64,000 nucleotides of DNA from Escherichia coli (GTDB taxonomy: Bacteria; Pseudomonadota; Gammaproteobacteria; Enterobacterales; Enterobacteriaceae): assembly GCF_003019035.1 (NCBI RefSeq), contig NZ_CP027447.1; one strand, 5' to 3'. Every line of letters starts with the position of its first letter. Positions within the stretch are counted from its first letter, which is position 1. Both the position numbers and the translations under genes were made by a program. Shown here one piece after another: positions 1-59,993 of the stretch. Under the pieces are notes generated by a model. It had not been told where the DNA came from and did no database searches. It saw nothing but the letters and a program-made list of their open reading frames with translations.

Positions 1-19
1 CACGCAGAAAGAAAAGCGA

Positions 20-742
20 TCAAATTAAGCCAGTAGCGGCCGCGTAACAGGCCACCTGGGTCTTATTCGGTGCATTGATTTTTTTCTGCATGTTTTTCTG
101 ATGGAAATTGACCGTATTCTCAGAGATTGACAAAATCATCGCTATCTCTGCTGATGTCTTCCCTTCCGCCGTCCATTTCAGAATTTCTTTTTCGCGCTTG
201 CTGAAATTCATCTCTGGCGTCATCACTATTTCATCATTTAAACGCATTAGAGCCATCAGACTTTCGCGCACCAGTAACTGCATTTTTAATTGCAGTTCAT
301 CACTAAGAATGGGTATTTCGCGCGTGCTGCAACGGGAAAAGGACAAAAAGCCCAGCGCCCGATTTGGCAGCATTAAATACTGAGTGACACCGCGGCGTAA
401 ACCATGTGCGCGCGCAGCTTCCCATAACGGCTGTGCTTCGCTGAATAAGTCATCATTCCACATTAAATGGCCCTGACTAAAGTTTTCAGGGTTCAGCACA
501 GGATCAATTGCGAGAAAATTTTTTGCCTGATAATAACTAACCCACGACTCAGGGTAATTGGTGTAGAAAGCCACTTTAGGTCGCGTGAATGGTACCGGGT
601 GGCGAACACATAACGAATAGTAATCGTACTCCAGCTGCTGAGCCTGAAGCTCTATTTCATGGTAGACCTCTTCTGCGGCCTCCATCCTCTGAAAACGCAA
701 CAGCATCGTGCGAAGCCAGCTGAAAAAATCCGTATCCTGCAT
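20..742 (-). CDS. sdiA: LuxR-family quorum-sensing regulator SdiA
   Basis: ORF 20..754 translation recognised as SdiA; start trimmed to ATG at 742 (MQDTDFFSW), 240 aa. Confidence 0.93.
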   Translation of the reverse strand: MQDTDFFSWLRTMLLRFQRMEAAEEVYHEIELQAQQLEYDYYSLCVRHPVPFTRPKVAFYTNYPESWVSYYQAKNFLAIDPVLNPENFSQGHLMWNDDLFSEAQPLWEAARAHGLRRGVTQYLMLPNRALGFLSFSRCSTREIPILSDELQLKMQLLVRESLMALMRLNDEIVMTPEMNFSKREKEILKWTAEGKTSAEIAMILSISENTVNFHQKNMQKKINAPNKTQVACYAAATGLI

Positions 743-971
743 AGTAAACCGCAACGCCCCTGAGAGTGAGTATCATTTATAATGATAATTCAAACTATCA
801 CATAAATAAGATTTATATATAATTTATATTATTCAGGCAATGAATTACTTTTGCAAGCCATCGCATTCTCTTATGTTATTAATGAGTTATGCTGATTTGT
901 TAAGCAGTTTTATCACGTTTGAAGTGGCGCACCGCCCCGACTGGTGAATCGTCGGGGCTGATTTTTTCTTA

Positions 972-1724
972 TTATTGCAGCAGAAACTTCTCGAGGAACT
1001 GGCGGGTGCGAGGCTGCTGAGGATCGGCAAATAACGCTTTTGCTACCCCCTGCTCGACTATCCGCCCCTGGTCCATAAAAATCGCCCGGTCCGCAACATC
1101 CCGGGCAAAGCTCATTTCGTGCGTCACAATCACCATCGTGCGCTTTTCCTGCGCCAGCTGACGAATGGTGTTCAGGACTTCGCCCACCAGCTCTGGATCC
1201 AGCGCCGACGTTGGCTCATCAAACAAAATCACTTCAGGACGCATTGCCAGAGCACGCGCAATCGCAACGCGCTGCTGTTGACCGCCAGACAAACGACGTG
1301 GATAACTGGTTTCTTTACCGGCCAGCCCAACTTTCGCCAGCAGCTCGCGAGCGCGCGCCGTGGCCTCTTCTTTCGGTTCGCCTTTGACGATCACCGGCCC
1401 TTCAATAATGTTTTCCAGCACCGTACGATGCGGAAACAGATTAAAGTTCTGGAAGACAAACCCGACGTGCTGACGCAACTGGCGAATCAGCGATTTTTGC
1501 TGACTTAATGAACGTGCAGTATCAATAGTGATATCGCCAACGGTGATGGTTCCCGCTTCCGGTTGTTCCAGCAGATTTATGCTGCGTAGCAACGTGGTTT
1601 TGCCGGAACCACTTGGACCGATAATTGCCACTACTTCGCCAGGCTTTACCTCGAGGTCGATACCGTGCAGCACCGTCTGACCGTGGAATTTTTTCACCAG
1701 GTTCTTAACTTCAATGGCACTCAT
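972..1724 (-). CDS. tcyN: cystine ABC transporter ATP-binding protein
   Basis: 250 aa; Walker A GPSGSGKTT and ABC signature LSGGQQQR; adjacent to permease and dcyD. Confidence 0.93.
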   Translation of the reverse strand: MSAIEVKNLVKKFHGQTVLHGIDLEVKPGEVVAIIGPSGSGKTTLLRSINLLEQPEAGTITVGDITIDTARSLSQQKSLIRQLRQHVGFVFQNFNLFPHRTVLENIIEGPVIVKGEPKEEATARARELLAKVGLAGKETSYPRRLSGGQQQRVAIARALAMRPEVILFDEPTSALDPELVGEVLNTIRQLAQEKRTMVIVTHEMSFARDVADRAIFMDQGRIVEQGVAKALFADPQQPRTRQFLEKFLLQ

Positions 1725-2389
1725 TTGGGTTCCCTCTCCTGGCGATTAAGTTGATTCTCAAAATGGTTCTGCAACGTCGATAACACAGTCGCCATAATCC
1801 AGTAGATGAGCGAAGCCGCCAGGTACATGGTGAACACCTCCAGCGTGCGCGAGGTAATCAACTGCGCCTGACGGAACAGCTCCGGCACCTGGATTGTCGC
1901 GGCCAGCGACGTATCTTTTACCAGGCTGATAAAGCTGTTCGACAGCGGCGGCAACGCCACCCGCGCCGCCTGTGGCAAAATCGCGCGACGCATGGTCTGC
2001 CATGGCGTCATACCAATACTGGCTGCAGCTTCCCACTGACCTTTATCAATAGAAGAAATGGCGGCGCGCAGCGTTTCGGCAGCATAGGCGGCAGTGTTCA
2101 GCGACAGACCAATCATTGCTGACGGAATGGGATCTAGTTCGATGCCAAACTGCGGCAAGCCGTAATAGATCATAAACAGTTGTGCGATGAGTGGCGTACC
2201 ACGAAAAATAGAGATATAAAAACGCGCCAGCCAGCGCACGGGCCAGATTGGCGAAAGGCGCATCAGCGCGAGAATAAACCCTAGCAGTAAGCCAAAAAAC
2301 ATGCCGCCGATACTGAGTTGCAGCGTATACCCAGCCCCTTTCAGCAGGAACGGCAAGGAATCAATAACCAGTTGTATACTTTCTTGCAT
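1721..2389 (-). CDS. tcyL: cystine ABC transporter permease
   Basis: hydrophobic polar amino-acid permease-like protein; 4-nt overlap with tcyN; start trimmed to second ATG. Confidence 0.9.
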   Translation of the reverse strand: MQESIQLVIDSLPFLLKGAGYTLQLSIGGMFFGLLLGFILALMRLSPIWPVRWLARFYISIFRGTPLIAQLFMIYYGLPQFGIELDPIPSAMIGLSLNTAAYAAETLRAAISSIDKGQWEAAASIGMTPWQTMRRAILPQAARVALPPLSNSFISLVKDTSLAATIQVPELFRQAQLITSRTLEVFTMYLAASLIYWIMATVLSTLQNHFENQLNRQEREPK

Positions 2390-2403
2390 GAGCATTTCCG
2401 GAG

Positions 2404-4295
<1,892 letters not shown>

Positions 4296-4382
4296 ATTCA
4301 CCCCGAATGTTGTTATGTCTGTTTGCAGTGTAGAGCCATTGTTTGTAAACACAAAAACAACTCCGCTACATCTTATTCTTAT

Positions 4383-4934
4383 TTAATATATATCAGAAGC
4401 AGGCAGGCTGGAGGATTTCTGCACAAGTCCGGTACACGTTTGACGCTGATAGTGTTGATACTTCCGTAACGCGATGCGGTAATTGTTGGTGCTGGTGGAG
4501 GGCAGCCACGGGGCGAGGATTTCATCAAGGAAACCGTCCTGCAGCTGATCGAAGGAAATATTTTGCTCGTGTAGATGATTCCCCAAACGGCGCAGACGAA
4601 CGACATATTCACGCACCGTACCAGGGCTCATTTCAGTTTGCTCAAAAAGAAATTGCTTAAAGCCGATAATATCGAAAAAATCACTCTGCGTTTTGCAATG
4701 TAAATCACCGCAAAATCGGCACAATGCCGCCCATGATTGTTGTTCCACTTGCCAGCCGTTTTCATCAAGCAGCGTGTCCAGGCGGGAAATCTCGATTTTA
4801 TTCACTATCTTGCCGTCGCGAACGAGGGTAATGCGATCGAGTAATTTACGGCAATGCGCGCAATGGGTCTGGCTGTGTTTAAAGTCTTTAAGATAGCGGC
4901 TTAATGGCCGTCTTTTCAGGTGCTGCACCATCAT
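4383..4934 (-). CDS. fliZ: flagellar regulator FliZ
   Basis: translation recognised as FliZ; sits downstream of fliA; start trimmed to MMVQHLKRRPL. Confidence 0.9.
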   Translation of the reverse strand: MMVQHLKRRPLSRYLKDFKHSQTHCAHCRKLLDRITLVRDGKIVNKIEISRLDTLLDENGWQVEQQSWAALCRFCGDLHCKTQSDFFDIIGFKQFLFEQTEMSPGTVREYVVRLRRLGNHLHEQNISFDQLQDGFLDEILAPWLPSTSTNNYRIALRKYQHYQRQTCTGLVQKSSSLPASDIY

Positions 4935-4979
4935 TAAGAACTCCTGGTAGTCAAAATTAAAGTGCGGCATTTACTGACG

Positions 4980-5699
4980 TTATAACTTACCCAGTTTAGT
5001 GCGTAACCGTTTAATGGCCTGACTGTGTAACTGACTGACCCGCGATTCCCCGACCTCCAGCACCGCGCCAATCTCTTTGAGATTCAGCTCTTCCTGGTAA
5101 TAGAGGGTTAATACCAGTTTTTCGCGCTCCGGCAACGTTTCGATAGCTTCCATCACCCGCTGGCGCAGATTACTGTCCAGCAGTTGTTGTAGCGGGTTTT
5201 CTCGCTGATGATCATCAGTAACCAGTTCGATGCTATCGCCGTGCTCTTCGCGCCACTCATCGTAGGAGAAGAGCTGGCTGTTATTGGTGTCGAGCAACAT
5301 TTGGCGATAATCGGCAATATCGATCCCTAAACGTTCCGCAACCTCAGTTTCCGTGGCGTTGCGGCCAAGTTCCTGCTCCAGTTGCCCTATTGCCTGTGCC
5401 ACTTCACGCGCGTTGCGTCGCACGCTGCGCGGCACCCAGTCACGGCTGCGAAGTTCATCCAGCATAGCGCCACGGATACGCTGCACTGCGTAAGTTGTAA
5501 ATGCCGTTCCTTGTAGGGCGTCATAGCGTTCGACGGCATTAAGTAACCCAATGCCGCCCGCCTGTAGCAGATCGTCAAGTTCCACGCTCGCGGGCAGTCG
5601 AACCTGCAGGCGCAATGCTTCGTGACGCACCAGCGGGACATAACGCTGCCACAGCGAGTGTTTATCCATTACACCTTCAGCGGTATAGAGTGAATTCAC
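4980..5699 (-). CDS. fliA: RNA polymerase sigma-28 factor FliA
   Basis: 239 aa sigma-70-family protein recognised as FliA. Confidence 0.95.
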   Translation of the reverse strand: MNSLYTAEGVMDKHSLWQRYVPLVRHEALRLQVRLPASVELDDLLQAGGIGLLNAVERYDALQGTAFTTYAVQRIRGAMLDELRSRDWVPRSVRRNAREVAQAIGQLEQELGRNATETEVAERLGIDIADYRQMLLDTNNSQLFSYDEWREEHGDSIELVTDDHQRENPLQQLLDSNLRQRVMEAIETLPEREKLVLTLYYQEELNLKEIGAVLEVGESRVSQLHSQAIKRLRTKLGKL

Positions 5700-5821
5700 G
5701 ATAAACAGCCCTGCGTTATATGAGTTATCGGCATGATTATCCGTTTCTGCAGGGTTTTTAATCGGACGATTAGTGGGTGAAATGAGGGGTTATTTGGGGG
5801 TTATCGGTAAATTGCGGACAG

Positions 5822-5844
5822 AAAAAACCCCGCCGGTGGCGGGG
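5822..5844 (-). terminator. intrinsic terminator ending the fliC transcript
   Basis: GC hairpin ccccgccggtggcgggg followed by a T-run on the minus strand. Confidence 0.6.
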
Positions 5845-5876
5845 AAGCACGTTGCTGACAAATTACCATTCATGTT

Positions 5877-5977
<101 letters not shown>

Positions 5978-6018
5978 TTTGGCGTTGCCGTCAGTCTCAG
6001 TTAATCAGGTTACGACGA

Positions 6019-7299
6019 TTAACCCTGCAGCAGAGACAGAACCTGCTGCGGTACCTGGTTAGCTTTGGACAGCACGGAGTTACCTGCCTGCTGGATGATC
6101 TGCGCTTTCGACATGTTGGACACTTCGGTCGCATAGTCGGCGTCCTGAATACGGGACTGCGCTTCGGACAGGTTGGTAGTGGTGTTGTTCAGGTTGGTGA
6201 CTGCGGAATCCAGACGGTTTTGAACGGCACCGAGGGAGGAGCGGAAAGTATCAACCTGTGCAATAGCTTTGTCTAAAAGTGCCAGTGGATCAGCAGTGGA
6301 AGCCCCAGTAAATTCATCAGCCGTATCCAGATCAATGGTCTGAGCAATATCGGTTGGTGCAGCAGTGGACTGGTTTTTTACACCATCTGTAATTTCATAA
6401 TTCTTACCCTGAACGGTAGCGAAACCAACGGCCTCTCCGTCAGAATTAGCAGCAACTTTAATCAACGTATCATCTTTGGTAGCGCCGGTAATATCACCGC
6501 CTGAATAAGTAATATCCGTTTTATTAAGAGTTACAGTCCCGTCATCTGCAACAGATGCAGCGTAATTATCACTACCATAGCTAACAACATAGTTCTCAGT
6601 TGCCGCACCATCTTTGTCTAAGATATTGTGCAACGTTAAAGAACTTGCATTAACCTTTTGCCCCAAAGCAGTACCAATATCTGTTGCTGCTGCATCCAGA
6701 TCCACTTTAACTGGCGCGGCTGAACCATCGCCGACCTGCGTCACTGTATCGCTTAATTTTAGCGCCCCACCGGCAACACTAAAACCACTTAAACCAAGGG
6801 CAGAAGAGTCTATTTTCTGCAAATCGATAGAGATGGTCTGCCCATCATTCGCGCCAACCTGAATATTCAGAGAACCGTTTTTAGCCAGCACGTTCACGCC
6901 GTTGAACTGGGTCTGACCAGAGACACGATCGATTTCAGCCAAGCGGGATTTGATTTCGTCCTGGATTGAAGACAGGTCGGAATCAGAGTTGGTACCAGTG
7001 GTTGCCTGCACAGTCAATTCACGAACACGCTGCAGGTTGTTGTTGATTTCAGACAGTGCGCCTTCAGTGGTCTGCGCCAGAGAGATACCGTCGTTGGCGT
7101 TACGTGCGGCCTGAGTCAGACCTTTGATGTTAGAAGTGAAGCGGTTAGCAATCGCCTGGCCCGCAGCGTCATCTTTAGCGCTGTTAATGCGCAGACCAGA
7201 AGAGAGGCGCTCGATAGAAGTCGACAGCGCAGACTGGTTTTTGTTGATGTTGTTCTGAGTGATCAGCGAGAGGCTGTTGGTATTAATGACTTGTGCCAT
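6019..7299 (-). CDS. fliC: flagellin
   Basis: conserved flagellin N terminus MAQVINTNSLSLITQNN and C terminus SKANQVPQQVLSLLQG with a divergent central domain; 426 aa from ATG at 7299 (ORF-track start 7320 is TTG). Confidence 0.95.
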   Translation of the reverse strand: MAQVINTNSLSLITQNNINKNQSALSTSIERLSSGLRINSAKDDAAGQAIANRFTSNIKGLTQAARNANDGISLAQTTEGALSEINNNLQRVRELTVQATTGTNSDSDLSSIQDEIKSRLAEIDRVSGQTQFNGVNVLAKNGSLNIQVGANDGQTISIDLQKIDSSALGLSGFSVAGGALKLSDTVTQVGDGSAAPVKVDLDAAATDIGTALGQKVNASSLTLHNILDKDGAATENYVVSYGSDNYAASVADDGTVTLNKTDITYSGGDITGATKDDTLIKVAANSDGEAVGFATVQGKNYEITDGVKNQSTAAPTDIAQTIDLDTADEFTGASTADPLALLDKAIAQVDTFRSSLGAVQNRLDSAVTNLNNTTTNLSEAQSRIQDADYATEVSNMSKAQIIQQAGNSVLSKANQVPQQVLSLLQG

Positions 7300-7375
7300 G
7301 ATTTCTTTTCCTGTTTTCAAGTCTACGGTTTAAGTATTGGGCTTCCACCCTTCGGCTTCGTCGCCGTCAACCCTG

Positions 7376-7402
7376 TTATCGTCTGGTCACTCACAACCTT
7401 TA
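7376..7402 (-). promoter_or_regulatory. sigma-28 promoter of fliC
   Basis: minus-strand TAAAGGTT-N11-GACGATAA versus consensus TAAAGTTT-N11-GCCGATAA. Confidence 0.6.
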
Positions 7403-7475
7403 GAATTTTTTTCTAGCGGTCGAAATACTCCCCTTCCTCGTTGCTGTTCGTGTCATTAAACCAAAAAATAAATCG

Positions 7476-7502
7476 TAAACTTTGCCCCGCTTACGCCGAT
7501 AA
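7476..7502 (+). promoter_or_regulatory. sigma-28 promoter of fliDST
   Basis: TAAACTTT-N11-GCCGATAA about 45 nt upstream of fliD. Confidence 0.7.
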
Positions 7503-7544
7503 CCTCGATATTCGTTCTATACGTCGCATGATTAAGGAATCTAT

Positions 7545-8960
7545 ATGGCTAGTATTTCAACGCTTGGGGTTGGGTCGGGGCTGGACTTAAGCAGCATCCT
7601 TGACAGTCTGGAAGCGGCAGAAAAATCTACCCTGACGCCGATATCAAAACAGCAAAGCTCTTATACCGCGAAACTGAGCGCCTACGGGACGCTGAAAAGC
7701 GCACTAGAGAGCTTCCAGACAGCCAACACAGCACTGAACAAAGCCGATTTATTTACCGCCACCTCAACTACCAGCAGTTCATCGGCTTTCAGCGCCACCA
7801 CCACGGGCAGCGCGATTGCCGGGAAATACACCATTAGCGTTAGCCAACTGGCGCAGGCACAGACGCTGACCACCCAAAATAGTCAAAAAGACAGTAAAGC
7901 TGCCATCGCCACCAGCGATAGCGTACTAACCATCCAGCAAGGTGGCGGTAAAGATCCGGTCACGATTGATATCAGCGCGGCTAACTCGTCACTTTCCGGC
8001 ATTCGCGATGCCATTAACAACGCCAAAGCTGGTGTCAGCGCCAGTATCATCCATGTGGGTAACGGCGAGTATCGTCTGTCCATCACTGCTAACGATACGG
8101 GCAGCGATAACGCTATGAAACTTAGCGTCAGCGGCGACAGCGCCCTGGAAAGTTTTATGGGTTACAACGGAACGTCGGGTGATAGCAGCAATGGCATGAT
8201 TGAAAGCGTCACTGCGCAAAACGCCAAACTGACAGTCAATAACGTTGAGATTGAAAACAGCAGTAACACTATCAGCGACGCGCTGGAAGATATCACCCTC
8301 AACCTGAATGACGTCACCACCGGTAATCAGACACTGACCATCAGTAAAGACACATCCAAAGCTGAAAATGCGGTTAAAGCGTGGGTGGATGCCTATAACT
8401 CATTGCAGGATACGTTCAGCAGCTTAACCAAATACACCGCTGTCGATGCCGGAGCAGAGAGTCAGGACTCCAGCAATGGCGCATTACTCGGTGACTCCAC
8501 ACTGCGTACCATCCAGACTCAGCTTAAAACCTTGCTCGCCAATACTCACAGCAGTTCAAACTATAAAACGCTGGCACAGATTGGCATTACCAGCGATGCC
8601 AGTACCGGCAAGCTGGAAATCGCGACCGACAAACTGCAAACGGCGCTAAAAAAAGATGCCGCTGGCATCAGTGAAATGTTTATAGGTGACGGTAAAAGTA
8701 CAGGGGTAACCACCGGCATTAGTAGCAACCTAACCAGTTGGCTCTCTTCCACCGGGATAATCCAGGCCGCAAAAGATGGCGTCAGCAAAACGCTGAATAA
8801 TTTGACCGACCAGTACAACGCAGCCAGTGAGCGTATCGATACCTTAATGACGCGCTATAAAGCCCAGTTCACCCAATTAGATGTGTTAATGAACTCGCTT
8901 AACTCCACCAGTAGCTATCTGACACAGCAATTCGACACATCAAATAGCAACTCGAAATAA
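7545..8960 (+). CDS. fliD: flagellar filament cap protein
   Basis: 471 aa, recognised as FliD; divergent from fliC. Confidence 0.95.
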   Translation: MASISTLGVGSGLDLSSILDSLEAAEKSTLTPISKQQSSYTAKLSAYGTLKSALESFQTANTALNKADLFTATSTTSSSSAFSATTTGSAIAGKYTISVSQLAQAQTLTTQNSQKDSKAAIATSDSVLTIQQGGGKDPVTIDISAANSSLSGIRDAINNAKAGVSASIIHVGNGEYRLSITANDTGSDNAMKLSVSGDSALESFMGYNGTSGDSSNGMIESVTAQNAKLTVNNVEIENSSNTISDALEDITLNLNDVTTGNQTLTISKDTSKAENAVKAWVDAYNSLQDTFSSLTKYTAVDAGAESQDSSNGALLGDSTLRTIQTQLKTLLANTHSSSNYKTLAQIGITSDASTGKLEIATDKLQTALKKDAAGISEMFIGDGKSTGVTTGISSNLTSWLSSTGIIQAAKDGVSKTLNNLTDQYNAASERIDTLMTRYKAQFTQLDVLMNSLNSTSSYLTQQFDTSNSNSK

Positions 8961-8975
8961 TCTTCAGGAGAAACT

Positions 8976-9386
8976 ATGTACGCGGCAAAAGGCACCCAGG
9001 CCTATGCACAAATTGGCGTCGAAAGCGCCGTAATGAGCGCCAGCCAACAGCAGCTGGTCACCATGCTATTTGATGGAGTGCTGAGCGCACTGGTTAGAGC
9101 GCGCCTGTTTATGCAGGACAACAATCAGCAAGGCAAAGGCGTCTCTTTATCAAAAGCGATCAACATCATTGAGAACGGGCTGCGGGTGAGTCTTGATGAA
9201 GAGAGCAAAGACGAATTAACCCAAAACTTGATTGCTCTTTATAGCTATATGGTCAGGCGTTTGCTGCAAGCCAATTTACGCAACGATGTCTCCGCAGTCG
9301 AAGAAGTGGAAGCATTAATGCGCAATATTGCCGATGCCTGGAAAGAGTCTTTACTCTCCCCTTCTTTGATTCAGGACCCAGTCTGA
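8976..9386 (+). CDS. fliS: flagellin export chaperone
   Basis: 136 aa, recognised as FliS. Confidence 0.95.
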
Positions 9387-9751
9387 TGAACCACGCACCG
9401 CATTTGTATTTCGCCTGGCAACAACTCGTCGAAAAAAGCCAGCTCATGTTACGCCTGGCAACGGAAGAACAATGGGACGAACTCATCGCCAGCGAAATGG
9501 CGTATGTGAATGCGGTGCAGGAGATTGCACATCTGACTGAAGAGATTGACCCGTCCATCACGATGCAGGAGCAGCTCCGCCCGATGCTGCGCCTGATTCT
9601 CGACAACGAAAGCAAGGTAAAGCAGTTATTACAGATTCGGATGGATGAACTGGCGAAACTGGTCGGTCAGTCATCGGTGCAAAAATCGGTGTTAAGTGCC
9701 TATGGCGATCAGGGCGGCTTTGTGCTGGCTCCGCAAGATAACTTCTCGTGA
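9386..9751 (+). CDS. fliT: FliD chaperone / anti-FlhDC factor
   Basis: 121 aa; start overlaps fliS stop. Confidence 0.93.
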
Positions 9752-9828
9752 ATCTTAACGAGCTAATGGCTCGCGAATAATCCGATTACGGCTACGCTTC
9801 TAATGTTCCCCTTGAATGGAGTCGAAGA

Positions 9829-11316
9829 ATGCGTAATCCCACGCTGTTACAATGCTTTCACTGGTATTACCCGGAAGGAGGTAAGCTCTGGCCTGAACTG
9901 GCAGAGCGCGCCGACGGTTTTAATGATATTGGTATCAATATGGTCTGGTTACCGCCAGCCTATAAAGGCGCATCGGGCGGGTACTCGGTCGGCTACGACT
10001 CCTATGATTTATTTGATTTAGGCGAGTTTGATCAGAAAGGCAGCATCCCTACTAAATATGGCGATAAAGCACAACTGCTGGCCGCCATTGACGCCCTGAA
10101 ACGTAATGACATTGCGGTGCTACTGGACGTGGTAGTCAACCACAAAATGGGGGCGGATGAAAAAGAAGCTATTCGCGTGCAACGTGTAAATGCTGATGAC
10201 CGTACGCAAATTGACGAAGAAATCATTGAGTGCGAAGGCTGGACGCGTTACACCTTCCCCGCCCGTGCCGGGCAATACTCGCAGTTTATCTGGGATTTCA
10301 AATGTTTTAGCGGTATCGACCATATCGAAAATCCTGATGAAGATGGCATATTTAAAATTGTTAACGACTACACCGGCGAAGGCTGGAACGATCAGGTTGA
10401 TGATGAACTCGGTAATTTCGATTATCTGATGGGTGAGAATATCGATTTCCGCAATCATGCCGTGACGGAAGAGATTAAATACTGGGCGCGCTGGGTGATG
10501 GAACAAACGCAATGCGACGGTTTTCGTCTTGATGCGGTCAAACATATTCCGGCGTGGTTTTATAAAGAGTGGATCGAACACGTACAAGAAGTTGCACCAA
10601 AGCCGCTGTTTATTGTGGCTGAATACTGGTCGCATGAAGTCGATAAGCTGCAAACGTATATTGATCAGGTGGAAGGCAAAACCATGCTGTTTGATGCGCC
10701 GCTGCAGATGAAATTCCATGAAGCATCGCGCATGGGGCGCGACTACGACATGACGCAGATTTTCACGGGTACATTAGTGGAAGCCGATCCTTTCCACGCC
10801 GTGACCCTCGTCGCCAATCACGATACCCAACCGTTGCAAGCTCTCGAAGCGCCGGTCGAACCGTGGTTTAAACCGCTGGCGTATGCTCTAATTTTGTTGC
10901 GGGAAAATGGCGTTCCTTCGGTGTTCTATCCGGACCTCTACGGTGCGCATTACGAAGATGTCGGTGGTGACGGGCAAACCTATCCGATAGATATGCCAAT
11001 AATCGAACAGCTTGATGAGTTAATTCTCGCCCGTCAGCGTTTCGCCCACGGTGTACAGACGTTATTTTTCGACCATCCGAACTGCATTGCCTTTAGCCGC
11101 AGTGGCACTGACGAATATCCCGGCTGCGTGGTGGTCATGTCGAACGGGGATGATGGCGAAAAAACCATTCATCTGGGAGAGAATTACGGCAATAAAACCT
11201 GGCGTGATTTTCTGGGGAACCGGCAAGAGAGCGTAGTGACCGACGAAAACGGCGAAGCAACCTTCTTTTGCAACGGCGGCAGCGTCAGCGTGTGGGTTAT
11301 CGAAGAGGTGATTTAA
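9829..11316 (+). CDS. amyA: cytoplasmic alpha-amylase
   Basis: 495 aa glycoside hydrolase family 13 protein. Confidence 0.95.
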
Positions 11317-11349
11317 ATTCATCCCCGGCGGCAAGCCGGGGAGATTTCA

Positions 11350-11763
11350 TTACGGCAGTGGCGTCGGTAACGGCGCTTTATCCAGCGCGGCGGCACACTC
11401 TGCCGTCGGGCGATCCACACGCTCCATCGTCATACCATCGTACTCAATGGTGTTACCGTCACGCTCAACCTCGTACAGCTCACGTTTTACGGTAACGTTA
11501 GTGAGATCATCAGACATCAATGTCAACTTACCCGGCACAGCAATCACCCGCTGCCACTGACGGCAATCCAGAGTATCGCCCTCTTTAGTGACAATCAGGC
11601 TGCCTATCGCTTCCGGACTGACCAGCGCACGTTGCGGCCCTTTGGTCTGCCAGTAGCCCGCCAGCCAGTCCGGCGCGGGGGTTTTCACGACATTGTTATA
11701 GTTTTCGACTTCGGCACAGCCCGCCAGCAACATGAGCGCGCCTGCAATTGCGAGTTTTTTCAT
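11350..11763 (-). CDS. yedD: lipoprotein YedD
   Basis: lipobox LLAGC signal; start trimmed to MKKLAIAG. Confidence 0.9.
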   Translation of the reverse strand: MKKLAIAGALMLLAGCAEVENYNNVVKTPAPDWLAGYWQTKGPQRALVSPEAIGSLIVTKEGDTLDCRQWQRVIAVPGKLTLMSDDLTNVTVKRELYEVERDGNTIEYDGMTMERVDRPTAECAAALDKAPLPTPLP

Positions 11764-14272: not shown

Positions 14273-14752
14273 ATGTTCACGATTAAAACAGATGATCTCA
14301 CCCATCCAGCAGTGCAAGCATTAGTGGCTTACCATATTTCCGGCATGCTGCAGCAGTCTCCCCCCGAAAGCAGTCATGCTTTAGATGTGCAAAAATTACG
14401 TAACCCGACAGTGACATTCTGGTCAGTATGGGAAGGCGAACAACTCGCAGGAATTGGTGCGCTGAAGTTGCTGGATGATAAACATGGCGAGCTGAAATCA
14501 ATGCGTACCGCGCCTAATTATTTACGTCGTGGTGTCGCCAGTCTGATTTTACGCCACATTTTGCAGGTCGCCCATGACAGATGCCTTCATCGCCTGAGCT
14601 TAGAAACGGGTACACAGGCTGGATTTACGGCCTGCCATCAACTTTATTTGAAGCATGGTTTCGTTGATTGCGAACCGTTTGCTGATTATCAACTTGATCC
14701 ACACAGTCGATTTTTGTCATTGACGCTATGCGAAAATAATGAATTGCCATGA
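14273..14752 (+). CDS. yedL: GNAT-family N-acetyltransferase
   Basis: 159 aa acetyltransferase fold. Confidence 0.9.
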   Translation: MFTIKTDDLTHPAVQALVAYHISGMLQQSPPESSHALDVQKLRNPTVTFWSVWEGEQLAGIGALKLLDDKHGELKSMRTAPNYLRRGVASLILRHILQVAHDRCLHRLSLETGTQAGFTACHQLYLKHGFVDCEPFADYQLDPHSRFLSLTLCENNELP

Positions 14753-15169
14753 GCCAGACGCAGCACATTCTTGCATTCGACGAGCTGCGCCTTTATTTAT
14801 TATCAGCCGCAAATGTCTTGTCCTTAGACGCTCTTTCCACATGCGCCACAAGAAACCTCTATTCCAGTGACACAATTATGCCTGATTATTTCCCTAGCCC
14901 GGAATATGAATAAAAACATCAAATAAGATGAAATTATCAAAATATTAATGTTGCGTCTGTGGTCGTAACAACAACCGACCTGGTGATGCGTGTTAAAGGA
15001 GACACTCTGATGTTCAGGGGGGTTATCACGTATACAGATCGTGGATGGCAGAAAACTTTCAGAATCAGGTTTCCATTTTAAACCAGAAATTGAGTGAGTT
15101 TGCCCCATCAATGCCCCACGCTGTGAGTTTGGATGTCATTAAACAAGCACAATCAACACGTAACACAAC

Positions 15170-27697: not shown

Positions 27698-27784
27698 AAA
27701 TCCCGACCCTGAGGGGGTCGGGATGAAACTTGCTTAAGCAAGAAGCACTTAAAAAATTCGTTACACCAGGAAATCTGATGTGTT
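27698..27784 (-). ncRNA. dsrA: DsrA small regulatory RNA
   Basis: minus-strand 87 nt AACACATCAGATTTCCTGGTGTAACG...CCCGACCCCCTCAGGGTCGGGATTT matches DsrA as I recall it, ending in its terminator hairpin. Confidence 0.92.
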
Positions 27785-35955: not shown

Positions 35956-36185
35956 ATTGGATGAGCCAGTCAAGACTCAATCATTTTTTGAACAAATAGA
36001 TAATTTTTGCGCAACGGCAATAATTACCGGAAAAACAGCAATAAAGATTTATTATTATCTATGGTAATGGTTTTATTAATTCACCTAAACAATATATTAG
36101 CACCGAATTCAATTATACCTTTTTTGATTTCTGTGTCATGATAACCCCGTTATTAGCCTTTTATCGTCTTGTTTATATTTTTTGG

Positions 36186-36209
36186 GCCGGCATGATGCCG
36201 GCTTTTTTT
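36186..36209 (+). terminator. orphan intrinsic terminator-like hairpin
   Basis: gccggcatgatgccggc followed by seven T on the plus strand; no annotated plus-strand gene upstream. Confidence 0.4.
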
Positions 36210-45087: not shown

Positions 45088-45149
45088 TGGCGGAGAGAGG
45101 GGGATTTGAACCCCCGGTAGAGTTGCCCCTACTCCGGTTTTCGAGACCG
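45088..45149 (-). other. 3-prime 62 nt of tRNA-Ser(CGA) (serU-type): prophage att junction
   Basis: minus strand reads CGGTCTCGAAAACCGGAGTAGGGGCAACTCTACCGGGGGTTCAAATCCCCCTCTCTCCGCCA (anticodon loop to CCA end); tRNA 5-prime half absent, match stops at 45150. Confidence 0.8.
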
Positions 45150-45494
45150 ATGATACAGAGTCGAAAAATCAAAGAGTTAAAAATTTTTCTTGGAATAAAT
45201 GTCTTAAAATCGTACACGAAAAATCAATGAATTACATAAATTAAAGAAGAATATTCCAAGCCTTCTTAAGTCCACCACCTGTTTTCAGGTGTCATTCAGA
45301 CGTGATTTGCCCCATATTGGGAAAGCACGCTTTTTTCTCAGCTTATTCCGTTTTGCCTGTGTGTTGAATAATTCCACTGCAGTTATATAAAATCGGTAAC
45401 GGCTGGAAATCATTCAATACTCGCACTATCGGAAGTTCACCAGCCAACCGCAGCACGTTCTTGCATACGACGTGCTGCGGCATAATCCCAATGA

Positions 45495-46079
45495 TTACTC
45501 CCTGACAGGGTTCGTAGGCCACTCAATATCAGGTGCAGTTGATGTATCAACACGGTTCAGCAACACCCGATACTTCTTCCAGGCTTCCAGCAACGAGTTT
45601 TCTTCCTCCGTTGCAATTTCCAGATCTACAGCATCCTGAAGCGGCGCAATATGCTCACTGGCTACCTGCATCAGGCTTTTTTTTGTTTCTTCCGCCTCCC
45701 GGATCCGGAACAGTTTTTCTGCTTCCGTATCCTTCACCCAGGCTGTGCCGTTCCACTTCTGATATTCCCCTCCCGGCGATAACCAGGTAACATTTTCCGG
45801 TAACGGACCGAGTTCAGAAATAAATAACGCGTCGCCGGAAGCCACGTCATAGACGGTTTTACCCCGATGGTCTTCAACGAGATGCCACGATGCCTCATCA
45901 CTGTTGAAAACAGCCACAAAGCCAGCCGGAATATCTGGCGGTGCAATATCGGTACTGTTTGCAGGCAGACCGGTATGAGGCGGAATGTATGCATCACCTT
46001 CACCAATAAATTCACTGGTTCCGGCCAGCAGATTATAAATTTTTATGGTCCGTGGTTGTTCACTCATTCTGAATGCCAT
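45495..46079 (-). CDS. tfa: tail fiber assembly protein (lambda Tfa-like)
   Basis: 194 aa, matches lambda Tfa as I recall it. Confidence 0.9.
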
Positions 46080-48403
46080 TATGCAAGCCTCACAATATAG
46101 TTAAATGCGATGTTTTTGACGGTGTTTTCCGCGTTACCAGCAGCGTTAACGGTGATGGTGTGTCCGTGTGAACCAATACTGAAAGAATGGGCATGAGCAC
46201 CGATAACAACCGGATGCTGGTGCGCACCAATACCAACTGTATGCGCATGTGCACCGGCACTCACAGCTGTACCGGACAATGAGTGACTGTGGTTGCCCTG
46301 ACTGTCCGTTTTCGATAAATAAGCAATACCCTGTGTGTTGGTTCCTTTAACTGTGGATAAACTTCCTGTAATGGTTGCTGTTCCATACTGACTCCAGCCA
46401 GAACTGTTCATCCTTAAACCACTTGTGTGGGCATGAGCACCCGCGGCCCCTGTTGAACCGCTCAGACTGTGAGCATGAGCCCCCGTGTTATTCGTCGATT
46501 TGGTGCCGTAATCGAAACTGCCTGTTGTTTTCGTCCCGTAATCAAACGACGATGTGGTTTTCGTCCCCAAATCCGTACCGGATGCACTGGCACTGTGGGT
46601 GTGCGACTTAATTCCATCCTGTTCCTGAGACAATACAGCACGACCGCTGGCGGGTTTCCCCTTGATTGTCCAGCCTCGCATATCAGGAAGCACACCCGAT
46701 GGATACGCGACAGCAAGTTTTGGGTAGGCTGATTTGTCAAACGCCTGCCCCTGCATCAGGACGTAGCCAGACGGAACGATATCTGATGGCCACGGGATCG
46801 GCGCACCTGCCGGAAAGGCCGAATTCTCTCCGGCTCCAAGGTATTCAAGAACATCTGCAACAGAATTTTTTGCCAGAATATCCCTGCCAACCTGAGTCAG
46901 TTCAGTCAGGCTGGCGGCATCATTTTCCGCAAAATACGGTAATTTATTTTTCGCCGTGGAAAGCCCTGCCAGCGCCGTCAGTGTCGCATTCTTCGGTTGT
47001 TTACCCGCAAGCGCGTTAGTCATGGTGGTAGCAAAATCTGGATCATTCCCGAGCGCTGCGGCCAGTTCATTCAGCGTATTCAGTGCGTCAGGTGACGCGT
47101 CGATAACATCTGCAATCGCGGCCAGTACAAAAGCGGTGTTCGCAATCTGGGTATTGTTTGTTCCCCTGAGCGCGGTTGGTGCTGTTGGCGTTCCGGTCAG
47201 TGCCGGACTATCCAGTGGGGCTTTTCTGTTCGTTTCATCCATTACCACCTTAACCGCCTTTGGCGTTGCAGCAAGCGTTTCAGACGTGCTGTTGGTTGCA
47301 CTGCTGAGCTGCACTATCCCCTTTCTCGTTGTGTCCGCATCCTCAAGCGCGACAGCTGAAGCTATATCTTCTGCACGTTTTGCCGAGTTTTCTGCACGTA
47401 TTGCCGCCGCTTCTGCCGCACTTTTGCTCTGCGATGCTGATACCGCACTTCCCGCAGCCTCTGTCGCCTTCGTGGATGCCGTTGACGCACTCCCCGCCGC
47501 CGCTGTTTTTGCGTCTGCCGCGGCAGAGGCGCTCCGTTCCGCTGCTGTTTCAGATGACCTGGCATTCGTCTCGGACGTTTTTGCCGCCCTGGCAGAATTT
47601 TCTGCCGCCGTTGCCGAGGAAGCTGCACGACCGGCACTTGATGATGCGTTCGTTTCTGATGATTTTGCTGCCTCTTTTGAGGCCACCGCATCTCGTGCTG
47701 AAGTGGCGGCCTCTGACGCTTTAGTGGTCGCGGTGGAGGCAGACGTGGCGGCTGATTGTTGTGACGCTGCAGCATTCGTTTCTGACGTTTTCGCCGCACC
47801 GGCACTGGTGGCCGCCGCGCTTTTTGAGGACTCTGCAGCGGCAGCACTTTTTTCCGCTTCAGTGGCCTTTGTTGATGCCGTTCCTGCGCTGGAAGACGCT
47901 GACTGAGCCGACGAAGCGGCCTGTCCGGCTGACGTGCTGGCTGCGCGTGCTGAGCCTGCAGCATCAGTCGCATGGGTTGCCGCCTCACGGGCTGATGTGC
48001 TGGCATCGCCGGCTGACTTCTTCGCGGCTGCCGTGTTCTGTGCCACCACGGACGCGTTACGCGCCACCTCTTCCACCATCAGTTCAAAACGGCGCAGTGC
48101 CTCAGGACGGGCATCATCCTCCGTCATGGCACCGAGAAAATCATTCAGCGTACCGGGTCGGGAATCTTCATACACGGTGATGGTCCCGGCATGTGACGGC
48201 GGGAATCCTTCCACCAACAGAATAACGCTGTACTGACCGTACTCAACGTCCATGCTGTAACGCCCGGCTTCATCCGGATTTTCTGAGGCCAGCGTGTTCA
48301 CCACCACCGTGGTACTGTTACGTTTTGCTTTCAGCTGGATTGTGCAGTTCTGTACCGGTTTTCCTGTGCCGTCTTTCAGTACACCTGAAATCTTTACTGC
48401 CAT
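46079..48403 (-). CDS. stf: side tail fiber protein (lambda Stf-like, full length)
   Basis: N terminus [20 protein letters not shown]; Ala/Ser-rich repeats; C-terminal GAHAH repeats; ATG at 48403 (ORF-track start 48409 is GTG). Confidence 0.9.
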
Positions 48404-48414
48404 ATTCACCCCAC

Positions 48415-48440
48415 AAAAAAGCCCGCCTGAACCGGCGGGC
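48415..48440 (-). terminator. intrinsic terminator after lom
   Basis: gcccgcc/ggcgggc hairpin followed by a T-run on the minus strand. Confidence 0.6.
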
Positions 48441-48467
48441 TGTCATAACACTGTGTTACCTGGCTAA

Positions 48468-49067
48468 TCAGAATTTATAACCGACACCCACGATGAAACC
48501 GTCAGTGCGCCAGTCGCCACTGCCGGAACCTTCATAAGCGACATCAACGGCCACGGATTCGGTCGGGTTAAACTGCACGCCAGCCCCCCACGCCAGAGAC
48601 GTGTTGCTGTGGCGACCGTCATCACTTCCGATCAGCACATCGTGCGTTTTCCCCGTATTGTCGGTCACCTGCAGATAATCCCCGGAGAAAGTCGACACAC
48701 GGCTGTAAGCCACACCCGCCATCGCATACGCGCTGAACCATTCATTCACGCGCACAGACGGCCCCGCCATCACGCTGAACCAGCGGTTACGCACGGAATC
48801 TTCATGCCAGCGGGTATCGCTGTAATGCGTTTTTTGCTCATCTTCAGCGTTGGCATAACTGAATGACGTAATCAGCCCCAGCGTGTCCGTAAACTCATAA
48901 CGGTATTTCACGTTAATCCCGTTCAGATTATCGCTGCCGGGAGCGTTCGTACGGGCATGAAGATACCCTGCGCTCAGTGTGGCCTGCTGCTCAGACGCCC
49001 ATGCAGGCGCACCGGATACGGCCAGACAGATGGCTGCGGACAAAATGGCTGCACAAACTTTACGCAT
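48468..49067 (-). CDS. lom: Lom-family outer membrane beta-barrel protein (Ail/OmpX-like)
   Basis: 199 aa with signal peptide and C-terminal GVGYKF. Confidence 0.9.
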
Positions 49068-49091
49068 AATTACCTCTCGCTTTTCTGCAAT

Positions 49092-49115
49092 AAAAAAGGC
49101 GCCATTTCTGGCGCC
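49092..49115 (-). terminator. intrinsic terminator after J
   Basis: ggcgcc atttct ggcgcc hairpin followed by a T-run on the minus strand. Confidence 0.55.
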
Positions 49116-49134
49116 CGTATATGGGTTATAAAAT

Positions 49135-52100
49135 TCAGCTGATACTGATGCCTGCGGTGGCTTTCTTCATCACCACAACCAGCAAATCGCTGATACTTGC
49201 TGTGGGATACCAGTCATTTACCAGCCATGCTGACACCGAAAACTCCAGCGTCATGTGGCCGTGACCAGCTGGCATATCAATAACACCACTGTAAATCAGC
49301 GTATTATCCAGCGCGGTACGGTTATAAATTTCAGCACCATTTTTCTTCACTATCAGGCGGCATGACGAATAAATATCGTTATTCTCCCGCTCATGTTTAG
49401 CGCCGCAGAATGCCACCGCCGGAATAACAATTTGCCTGTCAAAAGGCTGATCGTCATAAATCCTGACGGTAATGGTCCCTGATGGCCACCGCTCCGGTGC
49501 CCGGGAGTCCCGCGGGAAAGCCTTACCCACTGTTTTGACAATATCGCCTTCAATCTGGTTGGCTGACAGTTTCCCTTTAATCTGACAGTTCTCATTTATC
49601 GTAACGTTGTTGAGCGTCCCGGAGTTCGCATTCACACTGCCACTGATATCCGCATTTTTAGCGGTCAGCTTTCCGTCTGATGTCAGGGAAAATACCGGAG
49701 GACTGCCTCCGCTGGTAATGGTGGGTGCCGTCAGGCGTTTCAGGAACACGTCGTTCATGAATATCTGGTTGCCCTGCGCCACAAACATCGGCGTTTCATT
49801 CCCGTTTGCCGGGTCAATAAACGCGATACGGTTAGCGGCAACCAGAAACTGGCTCAGTTTGCCTTCCTCCGTGTCCTCCATGCTGAGGCCAATACCCGCG
49901 ACATAATGTTTGCCGTCTTTGGTCTGCTCAATTTTGACAGCCCACATGGCATTCCACTTATCGTTGGCGTCCTTCCACTCTTTCGAAAACTCCTCCAGTC
50001 TGCTGGCGTTATCCTCCGTCAGCTCGACTTTTTCCAGCAGCTCCTTGCCGAGATGGGATTCGGTTATCTTGCCTTTGAAAAAATCCAGGTAACCTTCCGC
50101 ATCATCGCTCGCCCGACCGACGGCCTCCACGAATGCCGATTTGCCAACGGTGTTCACACTGCGGATATAAAAGTAATAATCATGGCCCGGTTTGATATTG
50201 ATACTGGCGGCTATCCAGTACAGCCCCGTGCCAAGATAGCGGGCTGTGGTTTCAACCTGCCTGATATCAGTAATCCGCGTTTCCGAGAACCAGAACTCAA
50301 ACTGTACCGTCGGATCGTAAACCGCAAGATGCGGCGTGGCGGTTATCTGAAAATAGCCCGGCGTCAGCTCAATCCGCGACGGCGCTGCCGGTGCGGCAAT
50401 CCGGAACGATACCGACGCCGGATCGCCCTGCTGTCCCCACGCATTTACCGCCCGGACTGTCAGCCTGTAGTTCCCTGGCGCCAGTTGCGTGAAGCGGTAT
50501 GTGGTTTCCGTCGTCCGGGCCGTGCTGACCAGCCGCTCACTGCCGTCATCCGCTGCCACGGTCAGGCGAAGCAGGAAGCTCACGCCCTTCACCACTTTCG
50601 GCGTGTCCCAGCGGGCCAGCACCTGATATTCTCCGCTGTCTGCGGTGACTTCGGCAGTCAGGTGCTGCACCGCTGGCGGCGTGACACCATTCACCGTGCC
50701 GCTCTGGTCGCCGTCAAAGTGCGCCCCGTTATCCACGATGGCCTCTTTTTCCGGCACATGCTGCACGGCGGTGATGGCATACGTGCCGTCATCGTTCTCA
50801 CGGATACTCACGCAGCGGAACAGTCGCTGGCGCAGCGTCGGCAGCTTCAGCCCCCATACGCTGTATTCAGCAACACCGTCAGGAACACGGCTCACTTTTA
50901 CCTTCACGCCGTCGGTGACGGACTGAACCTCCACGCTGACCGGATTGCCACTTCCGTCAACCAGGCTTATCAGCGCGGTACCGGAGGATGGCAGCGTGAT
51001 TTCACGGTCGAGCGTCAGCGTCCGGGTCTGGCTGTTCACCGCCAGCACGCGACCACCGGTACTGATACCGGCATAGTCATCATCGCAGACTTCAATGACG
51101 TCACCCGGTACATGGCGAAGCCCTTCTGCACCCACGCTGAAGTCCACCGTCTGCGTCTCCAGCAGTTCCGTTTTAATCAGCCACAGCCCGGCGCGGTGCG
51201 CCTGCCCCCGGCTGGTACAGCCAAAGGCATCCATCTTCGTGACGTTACGACCGTAACGGGCAATAGCCTGCGTATCTTCAACCAGCTCCGTCGCCGTCTC
51301 CCAGCCGTTGTTCGGGTCAATCCAGTTCACCTCAACGGCATTATGGCGGTCCTTCAGGGCGCTGAAGCTGTAGCGGAACGGCGCGCCATCATCCGGCATC
51401 ACCACATTACTGCGGTTATAGGTCCACACCTTATCTGATGGTCGGTCCTGCACGAACGTCAGCGTCTGCCCGTTCCATACCGGCATACAGCGCATCGCCG
51501 AGCAGAAATCACTGAGCACATCCCACGCCTTGCGCTGCGTGGTCAGGTACGCATTACAGGTGATGCGCGGCTCCGTGCCGCCAAAGCCGTCCGGCACTGA
51601 CTGGTCGCAGTACTGGCCGATGACATACAGCGCCCATTTATCCACATCCGCCGCACCAAGACGTTTCCCCATGCCGTAGCGCGGATGGGTCAGCATATCC
51701 CACAGACACCAGGCCATGTTGTTGCTGTATGCCGGTTTAAACGTTCCGTCCCAGATACCGCTGTATTGCCGCGTCTGCGGGTTATAGTTCGACGGCACCT
51801 GCAGAATGCGCCCGCGAAGATGATAATTACGACTCACCTGCTGGCTGCCGAACTGCTCCGAGTCCACCTGTACACCGACCAGTGCCGTGTTCGGGTAGCC
51901 CTGTTTCACATCGATGATTTCGGTGTATGACGACCAGAGCGTTTTGTTCTGCAGCTGGTCTGTAGTGCTGTCCGGCGTCATCCTGCGCATCCGGATACTG
52001 AACGGGCGCGGCGGCAGGTTACCCACCACCACCGAGGCCAGATACTGCGAGGTGGTTTTACCCTTAATGGTGATGTCTTTTTCTGTCACCCAGGCACCGT

Positions 52101-52530
52101 TACGCTGTATCTGAACCAGCAGGCGGACTTCCGACGGATTCCGGTCACCCTTTGAGGTGGTTTCCACCAGAGCCTGCACACCGAAGGTAAAGCGCAGTCG
52201 GTCGATGTTTGCCGACGTGATGGTCCGGGTGATCGGCGTGTCATATTTCACTTCCGTACCCAGCACCGTCTCGGAGCCGGAGGATTCAAACCCCTCCGGC
52301 GGTGTCTGCTCCTGCTCACCTGCCCGGAACACCACCGTGACACCGGAGATGTTGGTATTCCCCTCAGTGTCCAGCACCGGCGTACTGTTCAGCAGCACGC
52401 TTTTTAATCCATCCACCGGACCTTCAATCGGTCCTTCACTGATGGCATCAATCACACTCAGCAACTGCGTGGACTTCAGGTTGTCCTTCGCTTCGCGCGG
52501 GGTATGCCCCTTACTGCTGCCTTTACCCAT
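49135..52530 (-). CDS. J: tail tip / host specificity protein J
   Basis: 1131 aa; N terminus [24 protein letters not shown] matches lambda J; C-terminal ~150 aa diverge. Confidence 0.93.
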
Positions 52531-52590
52531 TCGTCATGCTCCATAAACGACAAAACCGCCCTGAGGCGGTTTCACATAAAACGTTTTTCA

Positions 52591-53238
52591 TCATCGACCA
52601 ATCACCACAACCTGACCACCGTCCCCTTCGTCTGCCGTGCTGATTTCCTGAGAAACCACACGAGACCCCACACGCATTTCACCGTACAGAACAGGCAGAA
52701 CATTGCCCTGGGCAACCATGTTATCCAGTGATGAAAAATAGGTGTTCTGCTTACCGTTATCCGTGCTGGTCGCTGTGGGCGTCCGGGCTTTCGGTGCCAG
52801 CATCTGGGCCACACCACCCAGGATCATACTGGCCCCTGCCGCATACATGCCCGATACAGCCGCGGCACCCAGCCAGCCCACAGGGTTCCACCATGCCACA
52901 GCAATCAGCGCCGCCCCCAGCACCACCTGAAACACACCGCCACTTTTAGCTCCCGCCAGACGCGGCACGATGTGGATCACGGCACCATTTGCCAGCGGCT
53001 CATTAAGACGGGCAGATAATTCGGTTTCACCTGCATCACGCCCGGCAATGCGCACCTGATACCAGCCGTCATTCAGTTTCTGACGAAACGCCGGGAGCTG
53101 TGTGGACAACGCCAGGATGGCTTCAGCCCCCGTTTTTACACGAAGGTCGATGCGGCGGCCAAATCGTTGTAAATCCCCGTAAAGGCAGATGCGTGCCATG
53201 CCCGGTGACGCCAGAGGGAGTGTGTGCGTCGCTGCCAT
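52591..53238 (-). CDS. I: tail assembly protein I
   Basis: 215 aa, lambda I-like. Confidence 0.9.
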   Translation of the reverse strand: MAATHTLPLASPGMARICLYGDLQRFGRRIDLRVKTGAEAILALSTQLPAFRQKLNDGWYQVRIAGRDAGETELSARLNEPLANGAVIHIVPRLAGAKSGGVFQVVLGAALIAVAWWNPVGWLGAAAVSGMYAAGASMILGGVAQMLAPKARTPTATSTDNGKQNTYFSSLDNMVAQGNVLPVLYGEMRVGSRVVSQEISTADEGDGGQVVVIGR

Positions 53239-53879
53239 TTGTCGGTATACCTCTCTCGTTTGCTCAGTTGTTCAGGAATATGGTGCAACAGCTCACCGTC
53301 GCCGCAGTAAATGGCGGCATGATTCGGCACCGATGAACCAAAACAGCACAACAGCACATCGCCCGGTTGTGCTGATGACAACGGCACCTGATACAGCCCC
53401 GTGGCCTCCAGATTATCCAGATAGAGATTCTGACCGTGACGCCACCAGTCATCCCCGCGATGAAAATCCGGCATCTCAATCCCCGCCAGATGATAAGCAT
53501 CCCGGAACAGCGTGTAACAGTCCGTCACCCCGTGATCAAAGCGCCTTCCGGTCAGATGTGGCACGCAGCGGAATTTATGGAGAGCCCCCCGACAGACCAG
53601 CCACCACGGCAAATCACTCTGTACCTGCAGCTGACGGTCGGCTTCACTCAGCCAGGGCAGACCACCGGGATGGCTGTGGACCAGCGCCACCACCTCGCCC
53701 TGTATTTGTGCCCGCAGCCAGTCTTCCGGTACCATCCGGAAACACGCCTCCGGAGTACCGGAGATATTCACGCAGGGAAGATACCTTTCCCCCTCCGGCG
53801 TTCTCACCACGAAGCCGCACGACTCCGCTGGCGCACATCGCCGGGCGTGCGCCAGAATCGCTGATTCAGTCTCTGTCAT
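53136..53879 (-). CDS. K: tail tip assembly protein K (NlpC/P60 + JAB/MPN)
   Basis: ORF trimmed to MTETESAIL; lambda K-like; overlaps start of I. Confidence 0.88.
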   Translation of the reverse strand: MTETESAILAHARRCAPAESCGFVVRTPEGERYLPCVNISGTPEACFRMVPEDWLRAQIQGEVVALVHSHPGGLPWLSEADRQLQVQSDLPWWLVCRGALHKFRCVPHLTGRRFDHGVTDCYTLFRDAYHLAGIEMPDFHRGDDWWRHGQNLYLDNLEATGLYQVPLSSAQPGDVLLCCFGSSVPNHAAIYCGDGELLHHIPEQLSKRERYTDKWQRRTHSLWRHRAWHASAFTGIYNDLAAASTFV

Positions 53880-53883
53880 GGAT

Positions 53884-54582
53884 TTACTGCGAAAGTTTGT
53901 TAATGGAAAGGAAGCCGCCAAAGTTGCCGACGTTATTGCGAAACTTACAGCCACTCAGGCATTTGCTGCATTTATCCTTCGTGATATCGGACGTCGGCTG
54001 GTCATATTCATCCGCGACCGCCGGACCGTTATAACCGCACTCATCGCCTCGATAGGTCCAGGTGCAGGTGTTGGCCAGCATGATACGGCCCGGAAAAACA
54101 GCGCCATCCGTTTCCGTCGGTGTGGACAGTACAAAAGAGGCACTGACCGCACTCAGTTCGCTGCACTGCTCGATGCGCCAGCGGCTGATCACCTCCTGCT
54201 CCGGATCGGCGTCACTGTTTCCGTTGACGAAGTTCACCGCATCCAGAAAACGGGCGTAAACCTTACGCCGGACCACCGTTCCGCCGACCAGACTCTGCAG
54301 ATCTTCCGCCATCCCGGTGACCATGCCGTGCAGATTAGAGACTTTCAGCGTTGGCCTTGCACTGGCTCCTTTGCCGTTCATCTCAAATCCACTTCCCTGA
54401 ATGGGATAGGCCTGATACTGCCGCCCCTGCCAGGTGACTGGTTCACCTTTTTCGTTCTGCTCATTACAGAAGAAATAACGATCTCCGCCGACCTCTGTCA
54501 GATCAATTTCCCAGAGCACGACCAGCGCGGATTGCTCCGCTTTTGTACACTCATTCAGTGTTTCCTGCTGTATATCCTGCAT
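53884..54582 (-). CDS. L: minor tail protein L
   Basis: 232 aa, lambda L-like. Confidence 0.92.
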   Translation of the reverse strand: MQDIQQETLNECTKAEQSALVVLWEIDLTEVGGDRYFFCNEQNEKGEPVTWQGRQYQAYPIQGSGFEMNGKGASARPTLKVSNLHGMVTGMAEDLQSLVGGTVVRRKVYARFLDAVNFVNGNSDADPEQEVISRWRIEQCSELSAVSASFVLSTPTETDGAVFPGRIMLANTCTWTYRGDECGYNGPAVADEYDQPTSDITKDKCSKCLSGCKFRNNVGNFGGFLSINKLSQ

Positions 54583-54881: not shown

Positions 54882-54915
54882 CCCCTCGCGGGGGATCCAG
54901 TTAAAAACTTCAGGC

Positions 54916-58149: not shown

Positions 58150-58160
58150 TCTCCGGACGA

Positions 58161-58185
58161 AAAAAAACCGCCGAAGCGGTTTTTG
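58161..58185 (-). terminator. intrinsic terminator closing the moron, immediately upstream of the tape measure start
   Basis: minus strand aaccgc ttcg gcggtt hairpin followed by seven T. Confidence 0.65.
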
Positions 58186-58191
58186 TATTCT

Positions 58192-58344: not shown

Positions 58345-58352
58345 GTCATTGT

Positions 58353-58526: not shown

Positions 58527-58583
58527 CGATGCCTCCTTACTTACTCAATAAAACGGGAATAATAATTCAGTTATGTGGAAAAT

Positions 58584-58874: not shown

Positions 58875-58885
58875 CCCCGGAAGCG

Positions 58886-59976: not shown

Positions 59977-59993
59977 ACTCGTCTCCTGAAAAT

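Follow-up and report, generated by a model that had tools for sequence, protein, structure and literature searches.

A chromosomal fliC gene of Escherichia coli that very probably carries the H42 flagellar antigen allele

The flagellin gene described here lies in a stretch of E. coli DNA of 64,000 nucleotides (the window, meaning the whole stretch that was analysed) and is, with little room for doubt, the chromosomal fliC of a strain with the H42 flagellar antigen allele (Table 1). The open reading frame is not due to chance, since its product carries both flagellin domains of Pfam: Flagellin_N (PF00669) at residues 5–141 (E = 6e-46, 156.4 bits against a cutoff of 26.6) and Flagellin_C (PF00700) at residues 340–424 (E = 7.8e-32, 109.9 bits against a cutoff of 23). 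The protein also scores well above the cutoff of the NCBIfam FliC/FljB subfamily model NF005294 (503.6 bits, cutoff 387) and slightly below that of the longer model NF005953 (612.4 bits, cutoff 619). Translation from the ATG at 7299 to the TAA at 6019–6021 yields a protein that runs from MAQVINTNSL to SLLQG. A mechanical list of open reading frames offers a longer version of 433 aa beginning with a TTG at 7320; the MAQVIN start is shared with the FliC of K-12, and RefSeq annotates the gene in strains SCU-301 and CLSC36 as 1281 nt. The gene occupies the canonical enterobacterial locus, with fliA on one side and the divergent fliD-fliS-fliT on the other. Downstream, on the fliC strand, tcyJ lies together with fliZ and fliA, while in the other direction amyA, also divergent from fliC, follows fliD, fliS and fliT, with fliE to fliR farther along.

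Table 1. Features of the fliC locus and other mapped elements of the window, in order of position
Feature	Position	Strand	Basis and remarks
fliZ	4383-4934	minus	ORF, annotation; downstream of fliC, same strand
fliA (sigma-28)	4980-5699	minus	ORF, annotation; downstream of fliC; amino acids 100% identical to K-12
fliC 3'UTR, equivalent of the K-12 FliX sRNA	5822..6015	minus	about 195 nt, about 97% identical to K-12
fliC coding sequence	6019..7299	minus	ORF and translation; 1281 nt = 426 aa plus TAA stop
fliC, conserved 3' part (C2) and stop codon	6019..6273	minus	C-terminal halves of D1 and D0
fliC, hypervariable middle, about residues 176-342	6274..6774	minus	501 nt; putative surface-exposed H42 antigen determinant
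fliC, conserved 5' part (C1), residues 1-175	6775..7299	minus	N-terminal halves of D0 and D1
sigma-28 (FliA) class 3 promoter of fliC, TAAAGGTT-N11-GACGATAA	7376..7402	minus	pattern search and K-12 alignment
divergent sigma-28 promoter of fliD-fliS-fliT, TAAACTTT-N11-GCCGATAA	7476..7502	plus	pattern search; conserved with K-12
fliD, filament cap, 471 aa	7545..8960	plus	ORF; FliD WP_000146835.1 in SCU-301, CLSC36 and WB61
fliS (flagellin export chaperone)	8976-9386	plus	ORF, annotation; 98.3% nucleotide identity to K-12
fliT	9386-9751	plus	ORF, annotation; 97.5% nucleotide identity to K-12
DsrA sRNA	27698-27784	minus	Rfam gathering-score match
RseX sRNA	36120-36209	plus	Rfam gathering-score match
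IS009	45538-45736	minus	Rfam gathering-score match; just inside prophage end

Comparison with the fliC of K-12 MG1655 (H48; 1497 nt, 498 aa) separates two conserved ends from a middle of a different kind. In the global alignment residues 1–175 are 92% identical to K-12 (161/175) and residues 337–426 are 93% identical (84/90); the middle has 49 of 161 residues in common with K-12 over 242 gapped columns. At the DNA level the blastn blocks against K-12 comprise window positions 1–6273 (97.5%) and 6775–11673 (87.5%), and for the 501 nt between them (6274–6774) blastn aligns nothing with the 717 nt that lie at this place in K-12. The difference of 216 nt between these two segments means that exactly 72 codons are missing relative to K-12. 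When the two middles were compared by blastp the sole similarity was a motif of 21 residues. The G+C content of the coding sequence is about 45% in the middle and 50–54% in the ends. In its position, gene order, sigma-28 boxes, 3'UTR and terminator the K-12 locus is as found here; it differs in having a middle without DNA similarity and a flagellin 72 residues longer. An earlier, sequence-only reading of this stretch had described a flagellin with canonical termini and a central region that differs from, and is shorter than, that of K-12, and had given the lengths as 426 versus 498 aa. That description is borne out on each point, including both lengths. Nor is the gene the K-12 H48 fliC, an identity that would have refuted that reading, since the middle is not homologous at the DNA level and the proteins differ in length.

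We call the allele H42 because it matches strains labelled H42 and because the H antigens of E. coli, which combine conserved ends with a hypervariable region, occur in discrete forms without intermediates (PMC7018530). The assignment is by genotype, and the H42 labels on the compared records are the depositors' own strain names, possibly derived from in-silico typing. Full-length matches to the gene are present in 34 of the 5426 complete E. coli genomes searched by megablast, and 23 genomes are 100% identical. The fliC of 'Escherichia coli O1:H42 strain CLSC36', a label given by the depositor, is 99.9% identical in nucleotides with a single, synonymous difference, and one protein record, WP_033869938.1, represents the FliC of the window, of CLSC36 and of SCU-301. 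The fliC of 'APEC-O117H42' is 98.7% identical, with 17 differences that all fall in the conserved ends and none in the middle; only one amino acid, S411A, distinguishes the FliC of the window from that of APEC-O117H42 (WP_000079766.1, the same as UniProt Q842B2). The 90% protein cluster to which the protein belongs also contains Q842B2_ECOLX and an NCBI entry named 'O83:H42'. Q842B2 is probably the H42 type-strain reference sequence; a literature search for an H42 reference with AY2500 accessions found nothing. The exact protein is recorded on 989 contigs, and the allele is already known, being a catalogued H type with hundreds of occurrences in public genomes.

The middle by itself tells the same story. 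In a sensitive blastn search the 501 nt were found in 35 of 5426 complete E. coli genomes, at 99–100% identity throughout, and were 99.8–100% identical to those of O1:H42 CLSC36 and APEC-O117H42; no other alleles resembling this middle were detected among the 5426 genomes. Because so few complete genomes carry it, the fliC middle helps in typing the source strain, as had been anticipated from the letters alone, and the non-K-12 H antigen proposed at the same time can, judging from genotype, be given the name H42. The value of the finding is that of routine typing, in that the source strain is assigned to H42, which is rare among complete E. coli genomes (0.6%).

In flagellin the middle is displayed on the outside and determines the H antigen (PMC7018530). 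By analogy with known flagellar systems, the FliC monomer would be chaperoned by FliS, exported by the flagellar type III apparatus and polymerised under the FliD cap, with its conserved ends forming D0 and D1, the inner coiled-coil core of the filament, and its H42 middle forming the outer filament surface that antibodies would see as the H antigen. Residues 88–97 (LQRVRELTVQ) of the predicted core, which presumably correspond to the region of Salmonella FliC recognised by TLR5, are identical in K-12. A full-length AF2 model based on an alignment of 17 sequences has a mean pLDDT of 73, with values of 81–93 in the middle and low values at the D0 ends, as is usual for a monomer; long helices are predicted in the conserved N-terminal part at residues 9–33, 41–101 and 106–129. 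The middle modelled alone (residues 168–342) reaches a pLDDT of 85.7 and a pTM of 0.82 and consists of one short helix and about eleven strands.

Structural comparisons suggest how this short middle may be built. The best PDB match of the full-length model in Foldseek is 9iwq (E = 3.9e-27, 429 columns, 53% identity), an engineered Salmonella Typhimurium FliC(G426A) delta(204-292) from which D3 has been deleted, a match consistent with a D0-D1-D2 arrangement without D3 in the H42 protein. By sequence, the best match among solved structures is the K-12 filament, PDB 8cxm (phmmer, E = 1.1e-138), and among the six best solved chains (E <= 1e-115) only 9iwq aligns in a single stretch, 2–424. For the middle-alone model the meaningful Foldseek matches in the PDB are to Salmonella FliC and FljB only (E = 1e-4 to 1e-2, TM 0.36–0.46, about 20% identity), the weaker matches being noise; the sequence of the middle alone, compared with solved structures, gave nothing beyond a chance match (E = 0.63). 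From these models, which were built on shallow alignments, we propose with moderate confidence that the H42 middle is a single compact, beta-rich outer domain that is distantly D2-like and has no D3. Such a domain would have about the mass of D2 without D3, and this predicted architecture would account for the shortfall of 72 residues relative to K-12.

Divergence from K-12 at this locus extends from the fliC middle into fliD. The fliD gene is 73% identical to that of K-12 in nucleotides and 80% in amino acids, as against 97–99% nucleotide identity for tcyJ, fliZ, fliA, fliS, fliT and amyA, and we therefore regard the fliC middle, the intergenic region and fliD as one variable block. The same FliD protein accompanies the H42 fliC in CLSC36, SCU-301 and WB61, and in CLSC36 and SCU-301 the locus and its neighbours are also the same as here, with nothing of substance that differs. 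Two H42 sub-alleles can be told apart, their middles identical and their differences confined to the conserved ends. From this pattern it seems that homologous recombination, with its end points in the conserved flanks, may both maintain the allele and move it among lineages. The locus again shows the textbook pattern in which the ends of flagellin are conserved, its middle is hypervariable and fliD varies along with it; it is not surprising and poses no challenge to current understanding.

The regulatory elements around the gene are those expected from K-12. The sigma-28 pattern occurs twice in the window, where chance would give 0.35 matches, and the two stand back to back in the intergenic region between fliC and fliD. 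Both boxes of the fliC promoter are the same as in K-12, within surrounding spacer DNA that has diverged and is 19 nt shorter. As in known flagellar systems, fliC would be transcribed late by FliA-RNA polymerase, as a class 3 gene. Its 3'UTR contains REP elements (two REP-like palindromes), and a terminator scan finds an intrinsic terminator with a GC-rich stem at 5844..5828 followed by a T run. In the K-12 annotation the ncRNA fliX comes immediately after fliC; this sRNA is processed from the 3'UTR and is reported to reduce both the amount of fliC mRNA and the number of flagella (PMC10578931).

The name given to the allele would mislead if the H type were new or mis-labelled, that is, if the antigen were other than serological H42 and the names on the matching genomes were wrong. 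Those names were indeed supplied by depositors, and yet we judge an error of this kind to be very improbable: three independent records bear the H42 label, each with an O group of its own (O1, O117, O83), their cluster includes an early UniProt entry, Q842B2, that is identical to the APEC-O117H42 protein, and the middle is practically invariant (99–100% identity) wherever a complete genome has it in full, which is the case in 34 of them. Fainter still is the chance that the short middle arose by internal deletion from a longer flagellin such as that of K-12 H48. A deletion would fit the 72-residue deficit relative to K-12, the one long gap that MAFFT opens opposite K-12 residues about 207–292, and a short motif common to both proteins (YAASVADDGTVTL vs YAVTVANDGTVTM). 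It is at odds with a 501-nt middle that has no DNA similarity to K-12 at all, with protein similarity of the two middles confined to 21 residues, and with the native full lengths of 410, 426 and 434 aa seen in flagellins from elsewhere whose middle is related to that of H42. These relatives include a Pantoea piersonii / Erwiniaceae flagellin and metagenomic flagellins, with 40–56% identity over the whole middle; several have E. coli-like C-termini and at least one adjoins a divergent fliD-fliS-fliT. An exhaustive search of 1.84 billion cluster representatives (50% clustering) recovers only 27 at E <= 0.001, which makes this a small family. Its members belong to other species or come from unknown sources and have diverged too far to represent the H42 antigen, and because their lengths are similar we consider the short middle to be the native architecture of this family. 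With native-length relatives in existence and DNA similarity lacking, deletion of a K-12-like gene is effectively refuted. We also dropped the idea that the H42 middle is one copy of a module duplicated in K-12 (YA..V...G.V motifs); blastp of the K-12 halves against each other, and of H42 against each half, returned marginal short matches only.

Of greater weight, though still improbable, is that the fliC is present without being the expressed H antigen, either because the strain is non-motile or because a second flagellin locus is in use with fliC repressed. There is precedent for this in E. coli strains with flk-, fll- or flm-type loci, and PMC7018530 cites both alternative flagellin loci and phase variation for this species. 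Even E210, the reference strain for H42, gave a negative serotyping result before a motility-induced derivative was taken (PMC3578835), from which it follows that carriage of the gene does not guarantee the phenotype. Against non-expression, the fliC reading frame, its sigma-28 promoter and its terminator are all intact here, as are fliA, fliZ, fliD, fliS and fliT; fliE to fliR are intact in the stretch of SCU-301 that is 99.993% identical; and a genome-wide megablast of SCU-301 reveals a single flagellin-like place. Typing practice, moreover, assigns H42 to fliC (a 'fliC allele H42' table is given in PMC12306158).

The DNA flanking the H42 allele narrows the lineage of the source strain. Positions 1–45149 of the window match E. 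coli SCU-301 at 99.993% identity; SCU-301 is a commensal from humans that belongs to phylogroup F and ST967 (PMC11251922). Over its first 25 kb the window shares 99.7% identity with some twenty other H42 genomes, and an ST648 isolate with fliC H42 has been reported (PMC12306158). The DNA comes from a relative of SCU-301 and not from that strain itself: identity stops at 45149, inside a tRNA-Ser gene of which the 3' 61 nt are left (45089–45149), and from there to the end of the window at 64000 lies lambdoid prophage DNA absent from SCU-301. The best match to positions 45089–64000 is strain JNEC-KY180 (98% coverage, 98.2% identity). ARAGORN found no tRNA genes in the whole window.

Several minor observations were made along the way. 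In WB61 (NZ_CP020025.1) a 975-nt 'flagellin' is the H42 fliC with 311 nt of its middle replaced by 5 nt; we rejected it as a natural H42 deletion variant, because the 5 nt include ambiguous bases and the junction probably reflects an error of assembly. The prophage genes past 45149 include those for tail tip protein J, tape measure and major capsid. At the neighbouring tRNA-Asn, SCU-301 has an island that encodes integrases, an RHS core protein and a very large protein with Ig-like domains, and in the window's strain this island has been replaced or displaced by the prophage. Finally, the equivalent of yedL, at about 14273–14753 of the window, is annotated as a frameshifted pseudogene in SCU-301.
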